Shown here: positions 2,229-13,050 of the stretch, in pieces
How positions within the stretch are numbered: position 1 is the first letter of the stretch
Layout of the letters: each line of letters opens with the position of its first letter
Assembly: GCA_035462575.1 (NCBI GenBank)
Contig: DATHUD010000178.1
Coordinates: 1 to 51,921 of the forward strand
Length of the DNA: 51,921 bases
From: Thermoanaerobaculia bacterium
GTDB taxonomy: Bacteria > Acidobacteriota > Thermoanaerobaculia > Multivoradales > UBA5704
Direction of reading: 5' to 3'
The notes under the pieces: generated by a model
The model's input: only the letters and a program-made list of their open reading frames with translations
Databases searched by the model: none
What the model was told of the DNA's origin: nothing
Program-made: the position numbers and the translations under genes

Positions 2229-2909
2229 CTAGCGAGCGACGGCCTCGGGCCCCAGGCCGCCCGAGTGGCGGATGTCGCGGCCTTCGACGTAGTAGACGAC
2301 GTCCTCCGCGATGTTGGTGGCATGGTCGGCGATGCGCTCCAGGTTGCGCGAGATGAGCAGGAGATGAAGCGCCCGGCTGACGGTTTTCGGGTCCTCGATC
2401 ATGTAGGTGAGGAGCTCGCGGAAGATCTGCTTGTAGAGCCCGTCCACCCCGTCGTCCGACTTGCACACCTCGGTCGCCAGCTCGACGTCGCGGTTTACGA
2501 AGGCGTCGAGGCTCTGGCGGACCATCGTCTGCACGAGCTGCGACAGGTGGGGCAGGTCGATATAGGGCTTCAACGGTGGCTGGTCGTTCAAATGCTCGAC
2601 CGACTGGGCGATGTTGACGGCAGAGTCGCCGATCCGCTCGAGATCGCTGTTGATCTTCATCACCGCGACCAGGAAACGCAGGTCGATGGCTGTGGGCTGC
2701 TTGCGGCCGATGAGGCTGTGGCAGACCTCGTCGATCTCCATCTCCAACTGGTCGACGGCGCGGTCGCCATCGATGACTCCCTTGCAGAGCGCGCCGTTGC
2801 GGTCGAGGAGCGCCTGGGTGGCCTCTGCGACCATGCCCTCGACGAGGCCTCCCATCCTGAGGAGCATCTGACGCACCCGATCCAGCTCGTGATCCAAATG
2901 TCGTTCCAT
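2229..2909 (-). CDS. phoU: Phosphate signalling complex protein PhoU
   Basis: 226 aa from MERHLDHELDRVRQMLLRMGGLVE... It shows the duplicated PhoU repeat, with two E/DxxxD-type motifs (SDLERIGD and RNLERIADHATNIAEDV). I chose the ATG at 2907-2909 over the TTG at 2930 used by the track. Confidence 0.9.
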   Translation of the reverse strand: MERHLDHELDRVRQMLLRMGGLVEGMVAEATQALLDRNGALCKGVIDGDRAVDQLEMEIDEVCHSLIGRKQPTAIDLRFLVAVMKINSDLERIGDSAVNIAQSVEHLNDQPPLKPYIDLPHLSQLVQTMVRQSLDAFVNRDVELATEVCKSDDGVDGLYKQIFRELLTYMIEDPKTVSRALHLLLISRNLERIADHATNIAEDVVYYVEGRDIRHSGGLGPEAVAR

Positions 2910-2995
2910 GAAATCCGGGTCCTTTCGCAAGCAGACATCTTACATCGCGCGCTTCCCGGCCGAAAGGCGCGGAAGTCCTTGACGGGCTTCATTTC

Positions 2996-3036: not shown

Positions 3037-3690
3037 TCACGCGGTGGGCTGAAGGAGCCGGCCCTCCATCGCGTCGCGCACCCCTTCGCCCAGCTCCTTC
3101 CAGACCTTGTTCTCCCGCTTTTTGAGGCGCTGGTAGGCGCGGGCGATGTCCAAGATGAGGATGATCCGGGCGCTCGCGCAGGCGAGCTCGCCGTGGCGGT
3201 GGGTGCCGATCCGCTCGAAGCCCAGCACCTGGGTGTGGAAGCGCAGCGGCGAGTGGGGGTCGTTCTCGAACACGTCGGTGAGGAAGTGGGTGTAGCCGCG
3301 CCCCACGACCTCGACGATCGCGGCCCGCATGAGCTTCATGACCACCCGGATGTTCCGGCGGTAGCGCGGCACGATCATGAAGCGGCCGATGTCCACGAAC
3401 CGGCCGCCGCGCTTCAAGCCTTCGAGGTCCACCTCGGGCTCCAGGGTGACGCCGTACTCGGCGGGCATCTCCAGGGAAGGATCGTAGACCAGGCGGATCA
3501 CCCCCGCGGGCTCGTCGCCTGCCGACACCAGGAACCAGGACTGGTCCTGCCGGGAGGCGATGTCCGCGGGGATCTCCGCGCCGGAGCTTGAGATCCACTG
3601 CTTCTCGTCGCGATAGACGGCCTCGATGACCGCGAGGGCCCGTTCGCGGTCCTCGGGCGTGAGGATCTTCTGCGCCGTGACGTTTTTCAT
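3037..3690 (-). CDS. GNAT/Acetyltransf_5-like N-acyl amino acid synthase (OlsB/GlsB-like N-acyltransferase)
   Basis: 217 aa, MKNVTAQKILTPEDRERALAVIEAVYRDEKQWI...GVIRLVYD...GRFMIVPRYRRN... It resembles the autoinducer-synthase-like fold of N-acyl amino acid synthases. The ATG at 3688-3690 overlaps the upstream acyltransferase stop by 4 nt. Confidence 0.6.
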   Translation of the reverse strand: MKNVTAQKILTPEDRERALAVIEAVYRDEKQWISSSGAEIPADIASRQDQSWFLVSAGDEPAGVIRLVYDPSLEMPAEYGVTLEPEVDLEGLKRGGRFVDIGRFMIVPRYRRNIRVVMKLMRAAIVEVVGRGYTHFLTDVFENDPHSPLRFHTQVLGFERIGTHRHGELACASARIILILDIARAYQRLKKRENKVWKELGEGVRDAMEGRLLQPTA

Positions 3691-4475
3691 GGACGGTCTC
3701 CGGCCGGCTCGAGCCGGCGAAAGGGTTCGTTGTTCCAACGGGTCTTTCCGGAAAGCTCTTCGAGGGACGCCATGACGCGGGAGACGGCGCGCCGCGCCAC
3801 CTCCCGCCGCGCCCGGCCCCCGGGCGCGGCCAGGGCCTCGTTCCGCTCGGCCGTGAAATCGAGGGGCTCTCCGACGCGGAGCACCAGCCGGCCGAGGCGC
3901 GGGGCCCGGCCGAGGCGCGTCCACGCGGGGTAGTGGATGCCCACGGGAACGACCGGCGCCGCCGAGCGCAGCACGAGCTCGCCCACGCCGCTCCTGCCGC
4001 GCAGCAGGCGCTCCGGGTCGGCATTCCTCGTCCCCTCGGGGAAGATCCCGAGGCTTCCGCCGGCCGCGAGCCGCGCGAGGCAGAGGTCGAGCACCGGCTC
4101 CTTCGCCCGGGAGACGCGGTACACCTCCCGCAGCCGGAACCGGGAGGGCTTGCGATAGACCGGGATGGGATCGCACTGCCGGATCACCCACCCCAGGAGA
4201 GGGAGATGCAGGTACATCCAGTCCACCAGGAAGTGGAGGGGGCGTCCTCCGCGCAGGTAGAGGAGCGCGCAGGGGACGAGGAGCGACTCGAAGGTGGTGT
4301 TGTGGTTGAGCGCGAAGATCGCCGGCTCCGGCCCTGTGGCCAGGCGCTCCGCCCCCTCGACCGCGACCAGCCCGCCGAAGGCGCTCAGGACCGTCTTCAA
4401 GGCGATCCGCCGGGAGAGATGGGGCATTCCGGGCAGCTCGGCACGGAGCACGTTCTGAAGGGTGTCGATCGGCAC
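3687..4475 (-). CDS. PlsC-family lysophospholipid/lyso-aminolipid O-acyltransferase (OlsA/GlsA-like)
   Basis: 262 aa with the acyltransferase block I variant NHNTTFES (HX4-acidic) and block III FPEGTRN. The start is GTG at 4473-4475, with a GGGAGA SD 5 nt upstream. Confidence 0.75.
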   Translation of the reverse strand: MPIDTLQNVLRAELPGMPHLSRRIALKTVLSAFGGLVAVEGAERLATGPEPAIFALNHNTTFESLLVPCALLYLRGGRPLHFLVDWMYLHLPLLGWVIRQCDPIPVYRKPSRFRLREVYRVSRAKEPVLDLCLARLAAGGSLGIFPEGTRNADPERLLRGRSGVGELVLRSAAPVVPVGIHYPAWTRLGRAPRLGRLVLRVGEPLDFTAERNEALAAPGGRARREVARRAVSRVMASLEELSGKTRWNNEPFRRLEPAGDRP

Positions 4476-4530
4476 GCGGGTCTCCCGTTACAGACGGCAA
4501 GACCTTTATGCCAGAGGGGTTTGATCCCCC

Positions 4531-4561: not shown

Positions 4562-6325
4562 TTACGAGCGCGGCAGCCGCACCCGGAACGTGGTGCCTTG
4601 GCCGATGCGGCTTTCGACTTCCACCTGGCCGCCGTGGGCCTGGGCCACGTGCTTGACGATGGCGAGCCCGAGGCCGGTGCCGCCCTCTTCGCGGGCGCGG
4701 CCCTTGTCCACCCGGTAGAAGCGCTCGAAGAGGCGGGGGAGCGAGTCCTGGGGGATGCCGATGCCGGTGTCGGTCACCTCCAGGATCACCTCGGAGGCGG
4801 CCTCGAAGAGCCGGAGGACGACCGTGCCCTCGGGGCGGTTGTATTTGATCGCGTTGTCCAGGAGGTTCAGCACCAGCCGCTCGAACGAGTCGGCGTCGCC
4901 CGGGAGGGGGGAGACCGGCTGCTCGTCCACCTCGATCTTCACCCGCTTTTCGCGGGCGGCGGCTGAAAGGAGCTCGGCCGCGCGGTGGACGATGTCCGCG
5001 AGGTCGACCGGCTCGCGTTCGCTCGGGGGCTCCACCCCTTCTAAACGGGAGAGCGTGAGGAGGTCGTCCAGGAGAGCCTGGAGGCGGCGGCACTGGGAGA
5101 GGATGCGGTCCAGGAAGCGGCGGGCCGTGACGGTCTCTTCGAGGGCTCCGTCGTGCAGGGTCTCGGCGTAGCCGCGGATGGCGGCGAGCGGGGTCTTGAG
5201 CTCGTGGGAGACGTTCGCCACGAAGTCCCGCCGCATGTCGGCGGTGCGGGTGAGCTCGGTCGTGTCGCGGGCCACCACCACGGCCCCGCGCTGGCCGCCG
5301 GAAAGCGCGGCGCTCGCGAGCAGCAGGGTCCGCCGCTCGGGGCTTCGGAGCTCCATCTCGCCGTTCTGCGACGTGCCGAGCTTCAGGGTGTCTCCCACCA
5401 CGCGGGCGAGCTCGGGGTGGCGCAGGATCTCGAGAACCGGCCGGCCGGCCACCTCGCCCGTCAGGTCGAAGAGGCGCCGGAAGGCGGGGTTGACCAGGAG
5501 GGCCCGGCCGTCGGCCCCCACGACGAGCACCCCTTCGGACATGCTGGAGAGGATGGTCATCAGGTGGTCGCGCTCGTTGCGCACGGCCGCGAACTGGGCT
5601 TCGGCCGTGGCCGCCAGATGGTTCAGGGCCTGGGCCAGGGCCGCGAGCTCTTCCTCGTCCGGCACCTCGACGCGGGCGGCCCGGCCGTCCGCGAGGTCGC
5701 GGGCCCCTGCGATCAACCGGTAGAGCGGCTCGAAGATGCGGCGGTTGATCCACAAGGAGGTCAGGAGGATCGCGACCCCTGCGGCGAGGGTCGCCAGAGC
5801 CATGGCGGCTGCAAGGCGGCCCCGCAGAGCGTGCAACTGTTCGAGCGGTTGGGCAAGCCGCAGGATGAGGCGCCGCCCTCGAGAGTCGGTGAAGGCGTAG
5901 GCGGAGTAGACGTAGGTGATGCCGGTTGTGGCGCTTCTGCGCACTGCCGTACCCTCGCCCCGGGTGAGAGCTGCTTGCACCTCCGGGCGGTTCCCATGGT
6001 TCCTGATTCCAGACACCCGCTCGGGAGGTACCGAGCTTTCGGCGAGCACAGTGCCATCGCTGTTGATCAGGGTGATTCGGAGACTGCTATCGGCTGCGAG
6101 CTGGCGCGCCCAGAGGCGCGGGTCGGCCTGGGGGTCCTCCACCCGCTCGCGGACGATCGGGGCGAGGATGCGCAACGTGCTGTCGAGTTGGATGGTGGCC
6201 GTCTGCTGGAACAGCCCCGGCAGGAGGACCCAGAGGAGAGGCGTCGCAGTCAGCACCGCGGCGAGAGCCGGCCACAGGGGAGCGAGCCGCAGCTTGCGCG
6301 GCAGGCCGATCAGCAGCATCGGCAT
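4562..6325 (-). CDS. phoR: Phosphate regulon sensor histidine kinase PhoR-like (TM-HAMP-PAS-HisKA-HATPase)
   Basis: 587 aa with an N-terminal TM segment and the H-box FVANVSHELKTPLAAIRGYAETL. The N, G1 and G2 boxes are LLDNAIKYN, VTDTGIGIP and GGTGLGLAIV. The ATG at 6323-6325 is 7 nt after the phoB stop. Confidence 0.8.
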   Translation of the reverse strand: MPMLLIGLPRKLRLAPLWPALAAVLTATPLLWVLLPGLFQQTATIQLDSTLRILAPIVRERVEDPQADPRLWARQLAADSSLRITLINSDGTVLAESSVPPERVSGIRNHGNRPEVQAALTRGEGTAVRRSATTGITYVYSAYAFTDSRGRRLILRLAQPLEQLHALRGRLAAAMALATLAAGVAILLTSLWINRRIFEPLYRLIAGARDLADGRAARVEVPDEEELAALAQALNHLAATAEAQFAAVRNERDHLMTILSSMSEGVLVVGADGRALLVNPAFRRLFDLTGEVAGRPVLEILRHPELARVVGDTLKLGTSQNGEMELRSPERRTLLLASAALSGGQRGAVVVARDTTELTRTADMRRDFVANVSHELKTPLAAIRGYAETLHDGALEETVTARRFLDRILSQCRRLQALLDDLLTLSRLEGVEPPSEREPVDLADIVHRAAELLSAAAREKRVKIEVDEQPVSPLPGDADSFERLVLNLLDNAIKYNRPEGTVVLRLFEAASEVILEVTDTGIGIPQDSLPRLFERFYRVDKGRAREEGGTGLGLAIVKHVAQAHGGQVEVESRIGQGTTFRVRLPRS

Positions 6326-6332
6326 GCCGGGA

Positions 6333-7016
6333 TCAGGGCCTCAGCCGGTAGCCGACCCCGATGACCGTCTCGATCCGGTCGGCTTCGGGACCGAGCTTCC
6401 TGCGCAGGCGGCGGATGTGGGTGTCCACGGTGCGGCTGTCGATGTCCTCGGCGTAGCCCCACACGTCCGAGAGGAGCTGTCCCCGGGTCTGCACCCGGCC
6501 GCCGCGCTCCAGGAGGAGGCGCAGCAGGCGGAACTCGGTGGCGGTCAGCGGGATCTCCTTGCCGCGCACGCGGAGCTGGTGGCCGGAGATGTCGAGCTGG
6601 ATGCCCCCCACCTCCAGGAGCTCGTTGGCCTCCTCCTCGGGCTGGCGGCGGCGCAGCACCGCTTTGACCCGCAGCACCACCTCGCGGGGGCTGAAGGGCT
6701 TGGGGATGTAGTCGTCCGCCCCGAGCTCCAGCCCCACGATGCGGTCCACCTCTTCGCTCTTGGCGGTCAGCATGACAATGGGGAGGCGGGAAGTCGCACC
6801 GTCCCGCTTCAGCAGGCGGGTCAGCTCCAGCCCGTCGATGCCGGGGAGCATCAGGTCGAGGACGATCAGGTCCGGAGGCTCCCTGCGGATCGCCTCGAGA
6901 CCGGTGTCCCCCCGGCGCGCGAGCTCCACCTGGAAGCCCTCCTTCTCCAAGTTGTACTGCAGAACCTCGGCGATGTCCGGCTCGTCTTCGACAAGCAGAA
7001 TGCGTTCCCGTGCCAT
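6333..7016 (-). CDS. phoB: OmpR/PhoB-family phosphate regulon response regulator
   Basis: 227 aa from MARERILLVEDEPDIAEVL, with receiver motifs DLIVLDLMLPGIDG and KPFSPREV. The winged-helix C-terminus is LTATEFRLLRLL...VDTHIRRLRRKL...IETVIGVGYRL. I chose the ATG at 7014-7016 over the TTG at 7130. Confidence 0.85.
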   Translation of the reverse strand: MARERILLVEDEPDIAEVLQYNLEKEGFQVELARRGDTGLEAIRREPPDLIVLDLMLPGIDGLELTRLLKRDGATSRLPIVMLTAKSEEVDRIVGLELGADDYIPKPFSPREVVLRVKAVLRRRQPEEEANELLEVGGIQLDISGHQLRVRGKEIPLTATEFRLLRLLLERGGRVQTRGQLLSDVWGYAEDIDSRTVDTHIRRLRRKLGPEADRIETVIGVGYRLRP

Positions 7017-7239
7017 GTGAGAAGAGGCTACCACGGAGTCTTCCACAGCCGGTGCGGAAAAGCCTGCGGAAAATCCCCCGGAAAGGGCCGCCTGAGAGCC
7101 ATTCTCCGGCCTTTTGTCCGCTTTGACCAATGGTCTGTGCAGAGAGGCTAATCGACTGAAAGCAATACGTTTAGCCGCGCTCTTGCCGTTTCTGGAAAAG
7201 CGGGCGGGAGGAAGGATGGACAGATTTCCACAACGCGTC

Positions 7240-7278
7240 TGTGAATTCCCTGTGAGGGTTGTGTTAACTCTCTGTGAC
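7240..7278 (-). promoter_or_regulatory. Candidate tandem Pho boxes: four hexamers at exact 11-bp phasing upstream of phoB-phoR
   Basis: The minus strand reads GTCACA-gagag-TTAACA-caacc-CTCACA-gggaa-TTCACA (plus strand CTGTGA x3 plus GTGTTA). It sits in an AT-enriched 238-bp intergenic region. Confidence 0.45.
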
Positions 7279-7368: not shown

Positions 7369-8973
7369 TCAACCCGCCACTTCGAGCCCCTGCCGCAGGC
7401 GGAGCCGGCAGTCGAAGACCTTCTCGAAGAAACGGCCCTGCTCGCGGGCGGCTTCGAGCTCCAGCTCCACGTCGTAGCGGGAGAGGATCTCGAGCGTCAC
7501 CCGGCCGGCGCGGATCGAGGCGTAGATCTCGTCCACCCGGGAGGCGTGGGTGCGGTCGAGCGAGTCGGCGATCCGCAGGAGGGCGGAGAGCCTCTTGACC
7601 GCCTTCTGCTGCCAGGGCCGGAGCGCCGCCATCGTGGGATGGCCGGACTTGGGCGTCGCGCCCCGGTGGTAGCGGGCGACGTGGGCGATGATCTCGATCT
7701 CCCGCTGGTCGAAGGCGTCCAGGACCGCGTTGGTGATCAGGTAGTAGGCGTGCTTGTGGTGCCCCCGGTAGTGGATCGAATAGCCGATGTCGTGGAGGAG
7801 GGCCGCGTATTCGAGCCACTCCCGCTCGCGGGTGCCCAGGCCGTGGAGCGACGCGGTGACGTCGAAGAGGCGCAGGGCAAGGCGGGCGCTCTGCAGGTTG
7901 TGGCGGTAGACGCTCTCGGCGCGCTCGGCGAGCTGAAGGATCTGGCGCCGCCGCAGATCCTCGGGCTCGGCCGAGGCCGGAATCGGCTGGCCCAGGGCGG
8001 CGAGGACCAGCCCCTCCCGGAGGGCCCGGTCGCAGACGTGGAAACGGTCGGCCCCGGCGTGGGCCACGAGCTCTTCCAGCAGGATCGCCCCGGCGAGCAG
8101 GCTGTCCGACCGTGGCCCCCCGACCGGCGGGAGGTCCGCGATCTGGCGGCGCTTCATCGTTGCCAGGCGGAGGATGAGCTGCGTGAGGTCTTTCGCCCGC
8201 ACCTCGCGGAGCGACCCCGAGAGGTCCTTCCACGGGCGGTCGGCGAAGAGGTCGATCAGGTCGGCACAGCAGACCGCCGTGCCCGAGGTGGCGACGAGCC
8301 GCCCGGCGGGGCCTTTGGGCACGGCTTCGGCCAGCCGCTTCTGGATGCGGCGGCGGAGCCGGCCGACCCGGGTGTCGCCGGGCGGGTCGCCTTTCAGATC
8401 CGCGGCGCAGCGCAGCGACCCCAGGGTGAGGCTCACCACCTGCTCGACGTCGCCGCCGCGGGTGTTGATCCACTCCGTGCTGCCGCCTCCCACGTCCACG
8501 ATGGAAGCCGGCCCGGGCCCCAGGTCCACCACCTCGCGGACGGCCCGGTAGATGAGCCGCCCCTCCTCGACGCCGGTCAGGAGCTGGACGTCGAGGCCGG
8601 TCTGCGCCTTGACCCGGGCGAGGAAGTCCTCCCCGTTCGACGACTCGCGGACGGCGCTGGTGGCGACCGCCACCACCCGTTCGGCCCCTTTGAGGCGCGC
8701 GAGGGTGGTCATCTTGACCAGGGCCTCCAGGCCGTCGCGCATGGCGGCCTCGGAGAGCGCCCCCTCGCCCAGGCCGGTCTTGCCCAGGCGGACCATCTCC
8801 CGCTCCCGCCCCAGCACCTGATAGCCGCCGTTGGGCTCGGCGGCCACCACGATCATGTGGATCGAGTTCGATCCGATGTCGATCGCCGCCAGCCGCTCGC
8901 GGGAGGGGCGGACGGTTTCGTGCGGCTCGGCGGCGACGGGAAAGGTGAGCGGCTGGATCACGACGGTCGTCAC
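7369..8973 (-). CDS. ppx: Ppx/GppA-family exopolyphosphatase with a C-terminal HD domain
   Basis: 534 aa with LAAIDIGSNSIHMIVV (the ASKHA phosphate-1 motif) and VDVGGGSTEW. The C-terminal HD region is LLHDIGYSIHYRGHHKHAYYLI. The start is GTG at 8971-8973, 10 nt after the upstream stop; the start choice is uncertain. Confidence 0.85.
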   Translation of the reverse strand: MTTVVIQPLTFPVAAEPHETVRPSRERLAAIDIGSNSIHMIVVAAEPNGGYQVLGREREMVRLGKTGLGEGALSEAAMRDGLEALVKMTTLARLKGAERVVAVATSAVRESSNGEDFLARVKAQTGLDVQLLTGVEEGRLIYRAVREVVDLGPGPASIVDVGGGSTEWINTRGGDVEQVVSLTLGSLRCAADLKGDPPGDTRVGRLRRRIQKRLAEAVPKGPAGRLVATSGTAVCCADLIDLFADRPWKDLSGSLREVRAKDLTQLILRLATMKRRQIADLPPVGGPRSDSLLAGAILLEELVAHAGADRFHVCDRALREGLVLAALGQPIPASAEPEDLRRRQILQLAERAESVYRHNLQSARLALRLFDVTASLHGLGTREREWLEYAALLHDIGYSIHYRGHHKHAYYLITNAVLDAFDQREIEIIAHVARYHRGATPKSGHPTMAALRPWQQKAVKRLSALLRIADSLDRTHASRVDEIYASIRAGRVTLEILSRYDVELELEAAREQGRFFEKVFDCRLRLRQGLEVAG

Positions 8974-8983
8974 ATCCGGGATT

Positions 8984-10675
8984 CTAGCCCCAAGCCGCCA
9001 CTTCCCGGGGGATCTCTTCCTCGCGGCGGCTCGCGGCGTGGAGACCGTCCATGGCGCCGAAGAACCAGCGCATGTAGGTCCCGGCCAGATCCTCCAGGGC
9101 CGGGCTCCCGGCCAGGTCCAGGGCGTGGAGCGGGACCTCGGTGGAAGGAAGGCCGGTCACCCGGATGCCCAGGAGCTTGCCGGCGGCGAGCCCCAGAAGG
9201 CCCAGCGGGCCGGTCGTGCTGACGACGATCTCCGAGTACCGCTCCTTCTCGCAGTGGTCCAGGATCTCCAGAAGAGGCGGGATGACGATCTTCTGCGATG
9301 GCGATCCGGGCATCGGCATGGAGAGGAGAGGCTCGAAGCAACGGGCCCCGGGCCGCGTTTCGCCACAGAGAATGGCCGTCACCGTGCATCCCGGCTCTCC
9401 CGCGACCCGGTCCGCGCCGGCCAGCGTGTCCGTGAACCAGGCCTTCTTGCCCGGGCGGTCCCCTTCGGGGAGCTGCCCCAGGAAGCGCAGGGAGGCCGCT
9501 TCCATGAGGCCCGAGTCCTTGTGCTGGGCGTGGAGAGAGACGAGGTACGGCGCGAGCGAGACCGCCAGGGGGGCCAGGTGAGCCACCGCGCCCAGGCTCT
9601 CGGCCAGCCGCCCGCGCCGGGCGTGGCGGACGAAGTCGCGGACGAGCGCGGAGAGGGAGTCCCGGGTGGCCTGGCCGGCTTCGCCGAAGGTCGCGCGGTC
9701 GGCCTTGGCGGTGGGCGATTCCGGCGGGAGGGACGAACGCCGGGTGCCGGGGAAGGGGACCACCTGGGCCAGCCGCCCGCGCAGGGTCTTCCTCTCCTCC
9801 TGGGGGGCGCTCTCCGCCGCCGGGGCCAGGGCCAGCCGGCGCAGCAGCTCGGCGAAGGGGTCCTTCCGGTTGCCGAGGATCGCCGGAAACTGCCGCCGGT
9901 AGTACTCCCAGGTGAGGCTGTAGAGGCTCTGCACCAGCCGCAGGGTGGAGCCGGTGTCGCCTCCGGGCTCCTGGCGGCCAGCCCTCAAATGCGCCAGGTA
10001 CTCTTCGACCGTCGTGGCCTCCGGGGTTTCGGTAAAGGTCGTCGCGATGTAGAAGCCGCCGTGGTCGTCGCTGCCGCCGGTGAAAGACTTCACCCAGGGG
10101 ACCGCGCCGTACGGTTCCAGCCGGTGGCGCTCGGCGAGGTCCGCCACCACTTCGGGCGTGAGCGAGGAGAGGATGCGCCGCGCCAGCTCGTTGCCCCGCC
10201 GGTCGTGGATGCCGTTCAGGCCTTCGAAGCGGTTGAAGAGGACGATGAGCTTTTCGAGGTGGGAGAGGGTGAGGCGGTCGTTGACGCGGTAGAACGGATG
10301 GCAGACCGAATGGAGGATGTCGCGCTCCCGGAAATAGTCCCGCAGCTCGTAGACGTTCTTGCGGAGCCGCTGGATGTCTTTGTGCTGCTCCTCGGTGATA
10401 CCGGTCGCGAGGCAGTGGATCTCGCAGCCGTCCTCGGGGAACTCCACCGTCACCTCGGAGGAGAGGAAGGCCCCGGGCAGGTGGGCGATCTCCAGGGCCC
10501 CCGAGATGGCGTCGTGGTCGCTGATCGTGACGAAGCTCATGCCGCGCTCGCGGCAGATCCTGTAGATCTCCCGGGGCTCCGTGAAGCTCTCGGGCGCTCC
10601 GAACTGGCGCAGGATCCATTCGCTCGGGCGGTTGGAGTGCTTGCTGTGGACGTGCAGGTCGGCTCTGGCCGTCAT
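8984..10675 (-). CDS. PHP (polymerase/histidinol phosphatase) domain protein fused to what looks like only the N-terminal half of a GT-B glycosyltransferase
   Basis: 563 aa from MTARADLHVHSKHSNRPSEW (PHP metal motif). The C-terminal ~150 aa (IVVSTTGPLGLLGLAAGKLLGIRVTG...YMRWFFGAMD) resemble a GT4 N-domain. The ATG at 10673-10675 has an AAGGAG SD. Confidence 0.65.
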   Translation of the reverse strand: MTARADLHVHSKHSNRPSEWILRQFGAPESFTEPREIYRICRERGMSFVTISDHDAISGALEIAHLPGAFLSSEVTVEFPEDGCEIHCLATGITEEQHKDIQRLRKNVYELRDYFRERDILHSVCHPFYRVNDRLTLSHLEKLIVLFNRFEGLNGIHDRRGNELARRILSSLTPEVVADLAERHRLEPYGAVPWVKSFTGGSDDHGGFYIATTFTETPEATTVEEYLAHLRAGRQEPGGDTGSTLRLVQSLYSLTWEYYRRQFPAILGNRKDPFAELLRRLALAPAAESAPQEERKTLRGRLAQVVPFPGTRRSSLPPESPTAKADRATFGEAGQATRDSLSALVRDFVRHARRGRLAESLGAVAHLAPLAVSLAPYLVSLHAQHKDSGLMEAASLRFLGQLPEGDRPGKKAWFTDTLAGADRVAGEPGCTVTAILCGETRPGARCFEPLLSMPMPGSPSQKIVIPPLLEILDHCEKERYSEIVVSTTGPLGLLGLAAGKLLGIRVTGLPSTEVPLHALDLAGSPALEDLAGTYMRWFFGAMDGLHAASRREEEIPREVAAWG

Positions 10676-10740
10676 CGACGATCTCCTTAGATTTCCCTTC
10701 TCGCCGGGATGCCATGGTAGGAGGCCCGTCCGGACGATCG

Positions 10741-10769
10741 CGTGACGGAGGAGTGAAAAGGCCGTCACG
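10741..10769. promoter_or_regulatory. Inverted repeat CGTGACGG-N13-CCGTCACG containing 11-bp-phased GTGAC/GTGAA/GTCAC pentamers in the divergent PHP-ppx / ppk intergenic region
   Basis: On the plus strand, GTGAC is at 10742, GTGAA at 10753 and GTCAC at 10764. The minus strand reads GTGAC-N6-TTCAC-N6-GTCAC, 66-94 nt upstream of the PHP gene ATG. Confidence 0.3.
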
Positions 10770-10905
10770 GATCAAGATCTTGAGGTCCTCTCGGCGTCGC
10801 ACCTCCAGCTCTGGGGGTGCCTCCGGCAGAGGCCCGGACCGGGTCGAATTTGTCACACGCTCGCCGCTTCCCGATCCGGGCGGTTGTGCGAAGATTTTTC
10901 TCCCT

Positions 10906-13050
<2,145 letters not shown>

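Follow-up and report, generated by a model that had tools for sequence, protein, structure and literature searches.

A FeeM-type synthase gene paired with a PlsC-type acyltransferase gene in phosphate-regulon surroundings: a candidate route to phosphorus-free aminolipids in Thermoanaerobaculia and green sulfur bacteria

Introduction

What could two overlapping acyltransferase genes be doing between phoR and phoU? The question is raised by a stretch of DNA of 51,921 nucleotides from a Thermoanaerobaculia bacterium of the phylum Acidobacteriota (assembly GCA_035462575.1, contig DATHUD010000178.1, positions 1 to 51,921, here called the window), in which the minus strand between positions 4475 and 3037 encodes an O-acyltransferase of the PlsC family and, immediately behind it, an N-acyltransferase with GNAT fold. 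Ornithine, glycine and glutamine lipids are formed by just such a combination of an N-acyltransferase and an O-acyltransferase (PMC12971839, PMC5193443). Three routes to ornithine-type lipids are recognised, OlsB/OlsA, OlsF and OlsH/OlsI, and homologous GlsB/GlsA and GluB systems are known in addition (PMC12971839). In S. meliloti, S. proteamaculans and V. cholerae, ornithine-lipid synthesis is under PhoB/Pho-box control (PMC12971839, PMC5193443). In studies of anoxic waters and sediments, phosphorus-free lipids are taken to indicate phosphate stress. A first-pass annotation of the locus had read the two genes as a split OlsF with a phosphate-sparing role in the membrane, and had referred to the PhoB control of ornithine-lipid genes in rhizobia, which is indeed documented for S. 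meliloti (PMC12971839).

The answer that emerged from our comparative analysis is that the pair is probably a PhoB-activated phosphate-starvation module whose two steps would lead to a phosphorus-free acyloxyacyl amino-acid lipid. It is built on the families and folds of the two enzymes, the coupling of their genes, their conserved pairing and natural fusions, the phosphate-related neighbourhood in three phyla and conserved arrays of repeats.

Results

The gene pair and its conservation

The two genes are arranged as follows:

4475..3687, minus strand: PlsC/LPLAT-family O-acyltransferase, 262 amino acids; GTG start, with the Shine-Dalgarno sequence GGGAG at 4486-4482
3690..3037, minus strand: FeeM-type, GNAT-fold N-acyl amino acid synthase (hereafter GNAT), 217 amino acids; ATG start

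In the direction of transcription the O-acyltransferase comes first and the GNAT second. The stop codon of the former and the start codon of the latter share the four nucleotides ATGA at 3687-3690, which bears out the translational coupling that had been proposed. The GNAT gene is real far beyond chance, because 401 homologues of its product were found, the best 120 of them with 72-100% identity. A longer open reading frame (ORF) of 487 codons, which lies in the GNAT frame on the minus strand and spans both genes (3037-4500), was rejected as an artefact of the 69% G+C sequence: its first 270 residues correspond to the PlsC gene read out of frame and are rich in Arg, Pro, Gly and Ala. Gene callers could take this reading frame for a fusion protein.

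When one genome per species was scanned with a degenerate pattern, 288 relatives of the GNAT were obtained, and the best 80 loci were examined. A homologue of the acyltransferase is encoded directly upstream and on the same strand in all of the 79 evaluable loci, which stem from at least five phyla, and mostly it overlaps the GNAT gene or ends within 60 nucleotides of it. Natural fusions exist as well. An exhaustive HMMER search led to seven cluster representatives of 436-509 amino acids that carry an N-terminal PF01553 domain and a C-terminal domain homologous to the GNAT (40-56% identity), with five of the seven exceeding the PF21926 cut-off in this part. These PlsC-FeeM proteins are genuine and encoded in a single reading frame. 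In a tree of the GNAT domains the fused forms are scattered at several places among the split ones, and taken together with the pairing in 79 of 79 loci and the existence of the fusions this argues for a functional unit that was fused or split more than once. A complex prediction from the alignments of both proteins returned a score of 0.00, which is no verdict and from which nothing is concluded either way.

When neighbours of the pair were clustered across loci, only phosphate-related genes and lineage-specific ORFs emerged, and no dedicated genes for acyl carrier protein (ACP), acyl-ACP synthetase or export adjoin the pair. In Chlorobiaceae, a conserved ORF of 86 codons directly follows the GNAT gene and precedes a Pho-box-like array and a porin gene (L062:8726-8986, plus strand, and 31 further loci). 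An interpretation of this ORF as a dedicated ACP was dismissed, as its sequence has no ACP-like serine motif; the ORF is absent from the window.

The two enzymes

The GNAT scores 38.6 bits against PF21926, the FeeM family (cut-off 27), and 20.6 bits against PF13444, the family of OlsB, GlsB and the C-terminal part of OlsF, which is below the cut-off of 22.4. The same picture holds for the family at large, since 22 of 22 members tested match PF21926 and nine of these 22 match PF13444 weakly. Its AlphaFold (AF2) model has a predicted local distance difference test score (pLDDT) of 90, and the top match of this model in a Foldseek search of the Protein Data Bank (PDB) is FeeM itself (2G0B, E 1.9e-9, template modelling scores 0.64/0.75), with generic GNATs close behind. 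By family score and by closest fold, the protein is thus a FeeM-type N-acyl amino acid synthase, and the earlier assignment as a GNAT/autoinducer-synthase-like synthase stands. The comparison of the GNAT with OlsB, OlsF-C and FeeM profiles that had been called for came out on the side of FeeM, with PF13444 falling short. The relationship is distant: sequence identity to FeeM is about 14%, and PDB searches with the protein sequence and with the family profile gave no significant match, 2G0B surfacing by fold alone. Read from the sequence, the usual CoA-binding loop, Q/RxxGxG/A between strand 4 and helix 3, is missing from the GNAT fold, which suggests the use of acyl-ACP. We infer that the enzyme would take a long acyl chain from acyl-ACP and attach it to an amino acid at the amino group.

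The partner protein matches PF01553 with an E value of 1.1e-18 (67.8 bits) and contains, as had been noted before, the blocks NHNTTFES (residues 57-64) and FPEGTR (residues 145-150). The latter is motif III, while motif I reads NHNTTFE and is therefore of the HX4E type in place of HX4D. Among 88 partner sequences, H58 and E63 are conserved in 98% and P146, E147 and G148 of the FPEG block in 100%. Glutamate at this position of motif I is a known working variant, because E127 is given as the catalytic residue of LpxM in the title of the PDB entry. The AF2 model (pLDDT 91) is closest to PlsC of T. maritima (5KYM, E 2.6e-8), followed by GPATs, PatA and LpxM. Motifs I and III and the PlsC-like fold place the protein in the PlsC/LPLAT superfamily. 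The source genome holds seven PF01553 paralogues, and since the acyltransferase of the pair is only the third-best scoring of these, it is not the housekeeping PlsC. NCBIfam offers no specific model for either protein of the pair; the best matches, TIGR00530 (31.5 bits versus a cut-off of 103) and TIGR04045 (E 0.043), are not meaningful.

Linkage to phosphate genes

The pair is surrounded by genes that were identified by domain and NCBIfam matches, and its location between phoR and phoU was confirmed in this way:

2229..2930, minus strand: phoU, directly downstream of the pair (PF01895, E 4.7e-53; TIGR02135, 236.8 bits, cut-off 130.25)
4562..6325, minus strand: PhoR/PnpS-like sensor histidine kinase with HAMP, PAS, HisKA and HATPase_c domains; best NCBIfam matches PnpS and PhoR, both under their curated cut-offs
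6333..7130, minus strand: PhoB-like response regulator of the OmpR family (Response_reg and Trans_reg_C domains); best NCBIfam match TIGR02154 (PhoB), 264 bits, under the cut-off of 296.2
7369..8973, minus strand: ppx, exopolyphosphatase (Ppx-GppA, E 5.8e-51)
10714..13050, plus strand: ppk1, polyphosphate kinase, with matches to all four PP_kinase domains; divergent from the ppx-phoBR string

The true start of the response regulator probably lies about 40 codons inside the ORF as listed.

Similar surroundings are found in other lineages. Thermoanaerobaculia and their relatives show the order phoB-phoR-pair-phoU, in many cases with ppk, ppx and pstSCAB in the vicinity, and in related acidobacterial loci phoU is placed downstream of the pair at +740 to +800 nt. 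In Chlorobium phaeovibrioides (Chlorobiaceae) the order pair-porin-pstS-pstS-pstCAB-phoU is realised on one strand, and in some Desulfobacterota pstBAC is located about 2 kb from the pair. When loci with at least 5 kb of flanking sequence on both sides were counted, pst or phoU genes were present near the pair in 7 of 11 Acidobacteriota, 23 of 26 Chlorobiota and 2 of 6 Desulfobacterota. The linkage in Chlorobiota counts as a single event, because the sequences from this phylum form a single clade. The three layouts in the three phyla do not share an origin, and linkage of the pair to phoBR, phoU or pst is accordingly a feature of several lineages. Fused forms might have been expected in Pho clusters too, but the two fused loci whose flanks could be used (L016 and L017) have unrelated neighbours.

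Repeats resembling Pho boxes, arrays of hexamers at 11-bp spacing, accompany this linkage. The following elements were located in the window:

4558-4531, minus strand: candidate array for PhoB binding, located in the 86 bp between phoR and the pair, with three direct hexamers, GTCACC (4558-4553), GCCACC (4547-4542) and GCCACC (4536-4531), i.e., GTCACC-N5-GCCACC-N5-GCCACC
4510-4505, minus strand: CATAAA, candidate -10 element
7240-7278, minus strand: candidate Pho boxes upstream of phoB, with four phased hexamers (GTCACA, TTAACA, CTCACA and TTCACA)

Upstream of the pair, a TGTCAC..GCCAC..GCCAC block is conserved in orthologous loci with variable intervening bases, even where the upstream neighbour is not phoR, and (G/A)CATAAAG is retained in about half of these loci. 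A scan with the sigma-70 consensus revealed no full promoter, and no terminator was found, between phoR and the pair; the lack of a full promoter would be in keeping with an activator site that takes the place of the -35 element. The phased triple-hexamer pattern occurs at only four sites in the 8.5-Mb genome, namely upstream of phoB, of the pair, of a His_Phos_1/CHAD gene pair and of one ORF without assigned family. Upstream of the pair in green sulfur bacteria, conservation is confined to a four-hexamer array, again with 11-bp spacing. Of eight green sulfur bacterial loci scanned, five matched the strict triple-hexamer pattern; all five have it ahead of porin-pstS and two of them ahead of the pair as well, and sequence shuffling gave an expectation of 0-0.1 matches per locus. 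We read these arrays as putative PhoB operators, which the pair would have in common with phoB in the source genome and with porin-pstS in green sulfur bacteria.

The two further sites in the source genome lie at G000:C712:12788 (minus strand; L101:4789-4816) and G000:C176:4154 (minus strand; L100:4154-4181). One precedes the genes for a His_Phos_1 phosphatase and a CHAD-domain protein, the other an ORF of 752 codons without Pfam match. CHAD domains are associated with polyphosphate. The genes behind both sites are candidates for additional members of the Pho regulon.

Distribution

Within its own class the GNAT is patchily distributed (10 of 151 species genomes, 9 of 67 genera), and the second genome from the same genus gave no hit in a search with the source protein. 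In Chlorobia it is near-core, with occurrence in 83 of 121 species genomes, cultured strains included, and in the tree the Chlorobia proteins form one inherited clade. The pair is also present in some Desulfobacterota and Spirochaetota. Among the cultured carriers are Chlorobaculum thiosulfatiphilum DSM 249, Prosthecochloris vibrioformis DSM 260 and Chlorobium ferrooxidans DSM 13031, which makes the aminolipid prediction directly testable in green sulfur bacteria. Neither Chlorobiales nor Thermoanaerobaculia are among the orders with OlsB or OlsF homologues in a 2026 survey of ornithine-lipid synthase genes, and PF13444 had no match over the cut-off in two Chlorobiaceae genomes examined.

Comparison with known aminolipid routes

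By family the pair is closest to FeeM, by logic it is closest to OlsB/OlsA. In the OlsB/OlsA systems of S. meliloti and P. aeruginosa, including the GluB/OlsA variant, an N-acyltransferase and a PF01553 O-acyltransferase are likewise encoded by separate, adjoining genes. These are induced by low phosphate under PhoB (PMC12971839), and the chemistry that we propose for the pair is the same. The difference lies in the N-acyltransferase, which belongs to PF21926 and not to PF13444, in the gene order, with the O-acyltransferase gene first, and in the HX4E type of motif I. An OlsA-type partner, i.e., a PF01553 O-acyltransferase encoded beside an N-acyltransferase, is accordingly recognisable by family match, albeit with HX4E instead of HX4D, whereas an OlsB-type PF13444 protein is not part of the pair.

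OlsF, as known from S. proteamaculans, Flavobacterium johnsoniae, Vibrio cholerae (VC0489) and Desulfovibrio (Dde_3661), is Pho-regulated and its gene often adjoins pst. Its domain order is the same as the gene order of the pair, as had been pointed out before, and as the domain order of the fused relatives, which give the idea of split and fused versions substance. The domains themselves are different. OlsF consists of an N-terminal PF19576 and an OlsB-like, C-terminal PF13444 domain, and FeeM-type synthases are listed apart from OlsB (PMC11631085); OlsF has about 610 residues, while the pair combines PF01553 with PF21926 and its fused relatives have about 500. PF19576 has no match in the acyltransferase of the pair, where PF01553 provided the only hits even at E values up to 1, nor anywhere in the source genome, which is rated 100% complete. 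The same genome contains no match to PF13444 over the cut-off and no canonical gene of the OlsB, OlsF or GlsA type. In place of the named OlsB and OlsF references, PF13444-bearing OlsB-like and OlsF-like proteins from the same phylum were used for comparison. The OlsB-like proteins reach 93-109 bits on PF13444, and the OlsF-like ones, of about 610 residues, match PF19576 (51-100 bits) as well as PF13444. An alignment of the GNAT family with the OlsB/OlsF-C domains of these proteins by hhalign gave a probability of 4.3%, i.e., marginal kinship, and covered only the strand region with a common (E/D)-x-G-R motif. As a statement of homology, the term split OlsF did not survive these comparisons, since neither of the OlsF domains is present. 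Pair and OlsF appear to be analogous in architecture and not orthologous. The N-terminal domain of the acidobacterial OlsF-like proteins also matches PF01553, more weakly, with 24-47 bits (L110:472-2298, L111:103-1962, L112:478-2316 and L113:16-2277), and because of these matches the lack of PlsC similarity in the N-terminus of OlsF is not absolute.

Both in Pfam and by structure, the GNAT matches FeeM best, but FeeM works alone with its own ACP and yields free N-acyl tyrosine. Members of the GNAT family, unlike FeeM, invariably come with an O-acyltransferase, as a paired gene or as a fused domain, and occur in Pho clusters. GlsB/GlsA of Bacteroides resembles the pair in being a two-gene combination of N- and O-acyltransferase that leads to an acyloxyacyl amino-acid lipid, but neither of its families matches the proteins of the pair. 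OlsH/OlsI of Singulisphaera acidiphila, reported to be widespread in the FCB superphylum, is another route to the same kind of lipid that proceeds without OlsB. Its enzymes, an ATP-dependent GH3-type ligase (OlsH) and an alpha/beta hydrolase (OlsI), belong to families unrelated to those of the pair.

Discussion

Proposed function

In the scheme that we propose, PhoB dependence, substrates, step order, acyl donor, head group and membrane role are all predicted. Upon phosphate limitation, PhoB would bind the three 11-bp-phased repeats and activate the pair from its own promoter in the gap between phoR and the PlsC-type gene. The GNAT would then move a fatty acyl residue, probably a 3-hydroxyacyl group from acyl-ACP, to the alpha-amino group of an amino acid and thus generate a lyso-aminolipid, onto whose hydroxyl group the PlsC-type enzyme, with His-X4-Glu as its putative catalytic pair, would esterify a second acyl chain. 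The resulting lipid would replace phospholipid in the membrane and so free phosphate. The head group is not readable from the sequence, as had been stated at the outset, and may be other than ornithine, lysine, glycine or glutamine. As a prediction, this functional reading is well supported by comparison. The part of the earlier proposal that concerned phosphate is backed by synteny in three phyla and by the Pho-box-like repeats, while the acyloxyacyl aminolipid product is deduced from the enzyme families.

Several points weigh against it. Characterised FeeM-type synthases give free N-acyl aromatic amino acids and not precursors of membrane lipids, and a product with a non-hydroxylated acyl chain would leave the PlsC-type enzyme without a 3-hydroxyl group to acylate. 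The kinship with OlsB and OlsF-C is marginal, as described above. The source genome contains genes of the GH3 family (PF03321; G000:C217:959-1819, plus strand, and G000:C29:13-318, minus strand), which could represent a route of the OlsH type. The PhoB and PhoR assignments are best matches that stay under the NCBIfam cut-offs, and pst or phoU genes were found near the pair in none of three Spirochaetota loci, in none of five loci from other phyla and in neither of the two fused loci examined.

Alternative explanations

The alternatives differ in how much of this they retain. The pair might serve phosphate starvation with a phosphorus-free lipid that is not of the ornithine-lipid type, for example if the GNAT N-acylated a non-amino-acid amine or a hydroxy-amino acid and the PlsC-type enzyme esterified a hydroxyl group of the head group, or if a glycerol-based N-acyl amino-acid lipid were formed, comparable to the butyramide-cysteine glycerolipids of phosphate-starved Desulfatibacillum. 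The linkage to Pho genes suits such a lipid equally well, the GNAT family is far from OlsB/OlsF-C, the HX4E acyltransferases are a distinct subfamily, and phosphate-starved anaerobes do form new aminolipids for which the genes are unidentified (PMC11181052). The sequence, however, gives no pointer to acceptors of this kind, and we regard this explanation as unlikely. An involvement in phospholipid remodelling, in which the GNAT would N-acylate a lipid such as phosphatidylethanolamine to N-acyl-phosphatidylethanolamine while the PlsC-type enzyme re-acylates lysophospholipids, could draw on the best structural match of the acyltransferase, a lysophosphatidate acyltransferase, on the diversity of GNAT acceptors and on the increase of N-acyl-phosphatidylethanolamine in phosphate-limited Desulfovibrio mutants (PMC5193443). 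Yet placement in the Pho regulon suits the saving of phosphorus better than the decoration of phospholipids, the GNAT itself is matched best, in family as well as in fold, by an amino-acid N-acyl synthase, and better-scoring PF01553 paralogues are available in the genome for housekeeping acylation, all of which makes remodelling quite improbable.

It is established that characterised members of the FeeM family yield free long-chain N-acyl amino acids (references 26-28 and 34 in PMC11631085), and the product of the pair might likewise be released as a signal, a surfactant or an antibiotic-like compound (compare FeeM and NasY from environmental DNA), with the acyltransferase acting in tailoring only and without a bulk role in the membrane. 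We give this little credence: the fee cluster differs in that dedicated ACP, acyl-ACP synthetase and export genes are lacking beside the pair, and in Chlorobia the GNAT is near-core, forms one clade and is encoded at the head of a pst operon. Finally, the position between phoR and phoU could have arisen neutrally, as an accident in the arrangement of genes, with the pair unrelated to phosphate. Its patchy occurrence in its own class and its location outside Pho clusters in Spirochaetota, other phyla and the examined fused forms would fit, but three distinct Pho-linked layouts in three phyla and conserved Pho-box-like arrays in common with phoB in the source genome and porin-pstS in green sulfur bacteria are difficult to reconcile with chance, and we consider an accident highly improbable.

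Novelty and implications

The combination of an N-acyltransferase and an O-acyltransferase under Pho control is a textbook design and not categorically new. As far as the literature was searched, which reaches few subscription journals, no aminolipid pair of a FeeM-type and a PlsC-type enzyme has been described, nor have Pho-induced aminolipids been reported from green sulfur bacteria. In the literature so searched we also found no description of these enzyme families in combination, of the HX4E subfamily, of the naturally fused forms or of a near-core occurrence of the pair in green sulfur bacteria. It is tempting, though tentative, to regard the pair as a fourth, independently evolved and Pho-controlled aminolipid route with a FeeM-type synthase and an HX4E-type PlsC, which occurs in split and fused form and is near-core in green sulfur bacteria. 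If the proposed function is correct, a low-phosphate lipid is predicted for Chlorobia and for some Thermoanaerobaculia, Desulfobacterota and Spirochaetota, lipidomics surveys would gain a gene marker, and FeeM-type chemistry would be widened from free N-acyl amino acids to precursors of membrane lipids.

Further genes at the locus

Between ppx and ppk1, an ORF of 594 codons (window positions 8984-10768, minus strand) has no Pfam match at E values up to 0.001 in both long readings. In one Thermoanaerobaculaceae genome (L002, from the same record as L025) phoBR is not located directly upstream of the pair, and an additional ORF of 171 codons without Pfam family is inserted between the GNAT gene and phoU (L002:6728-7243). 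In the window, phoU is followed on the same strand (193-2071, minus) by genes for an ArsR-type regulator (HTH_5), an ArsP_1 permease, a Thioredoxin_3 protein and a protein with a weak match to DUF2180, and ArsP and thioredoxin genes recur near the pair in L002.

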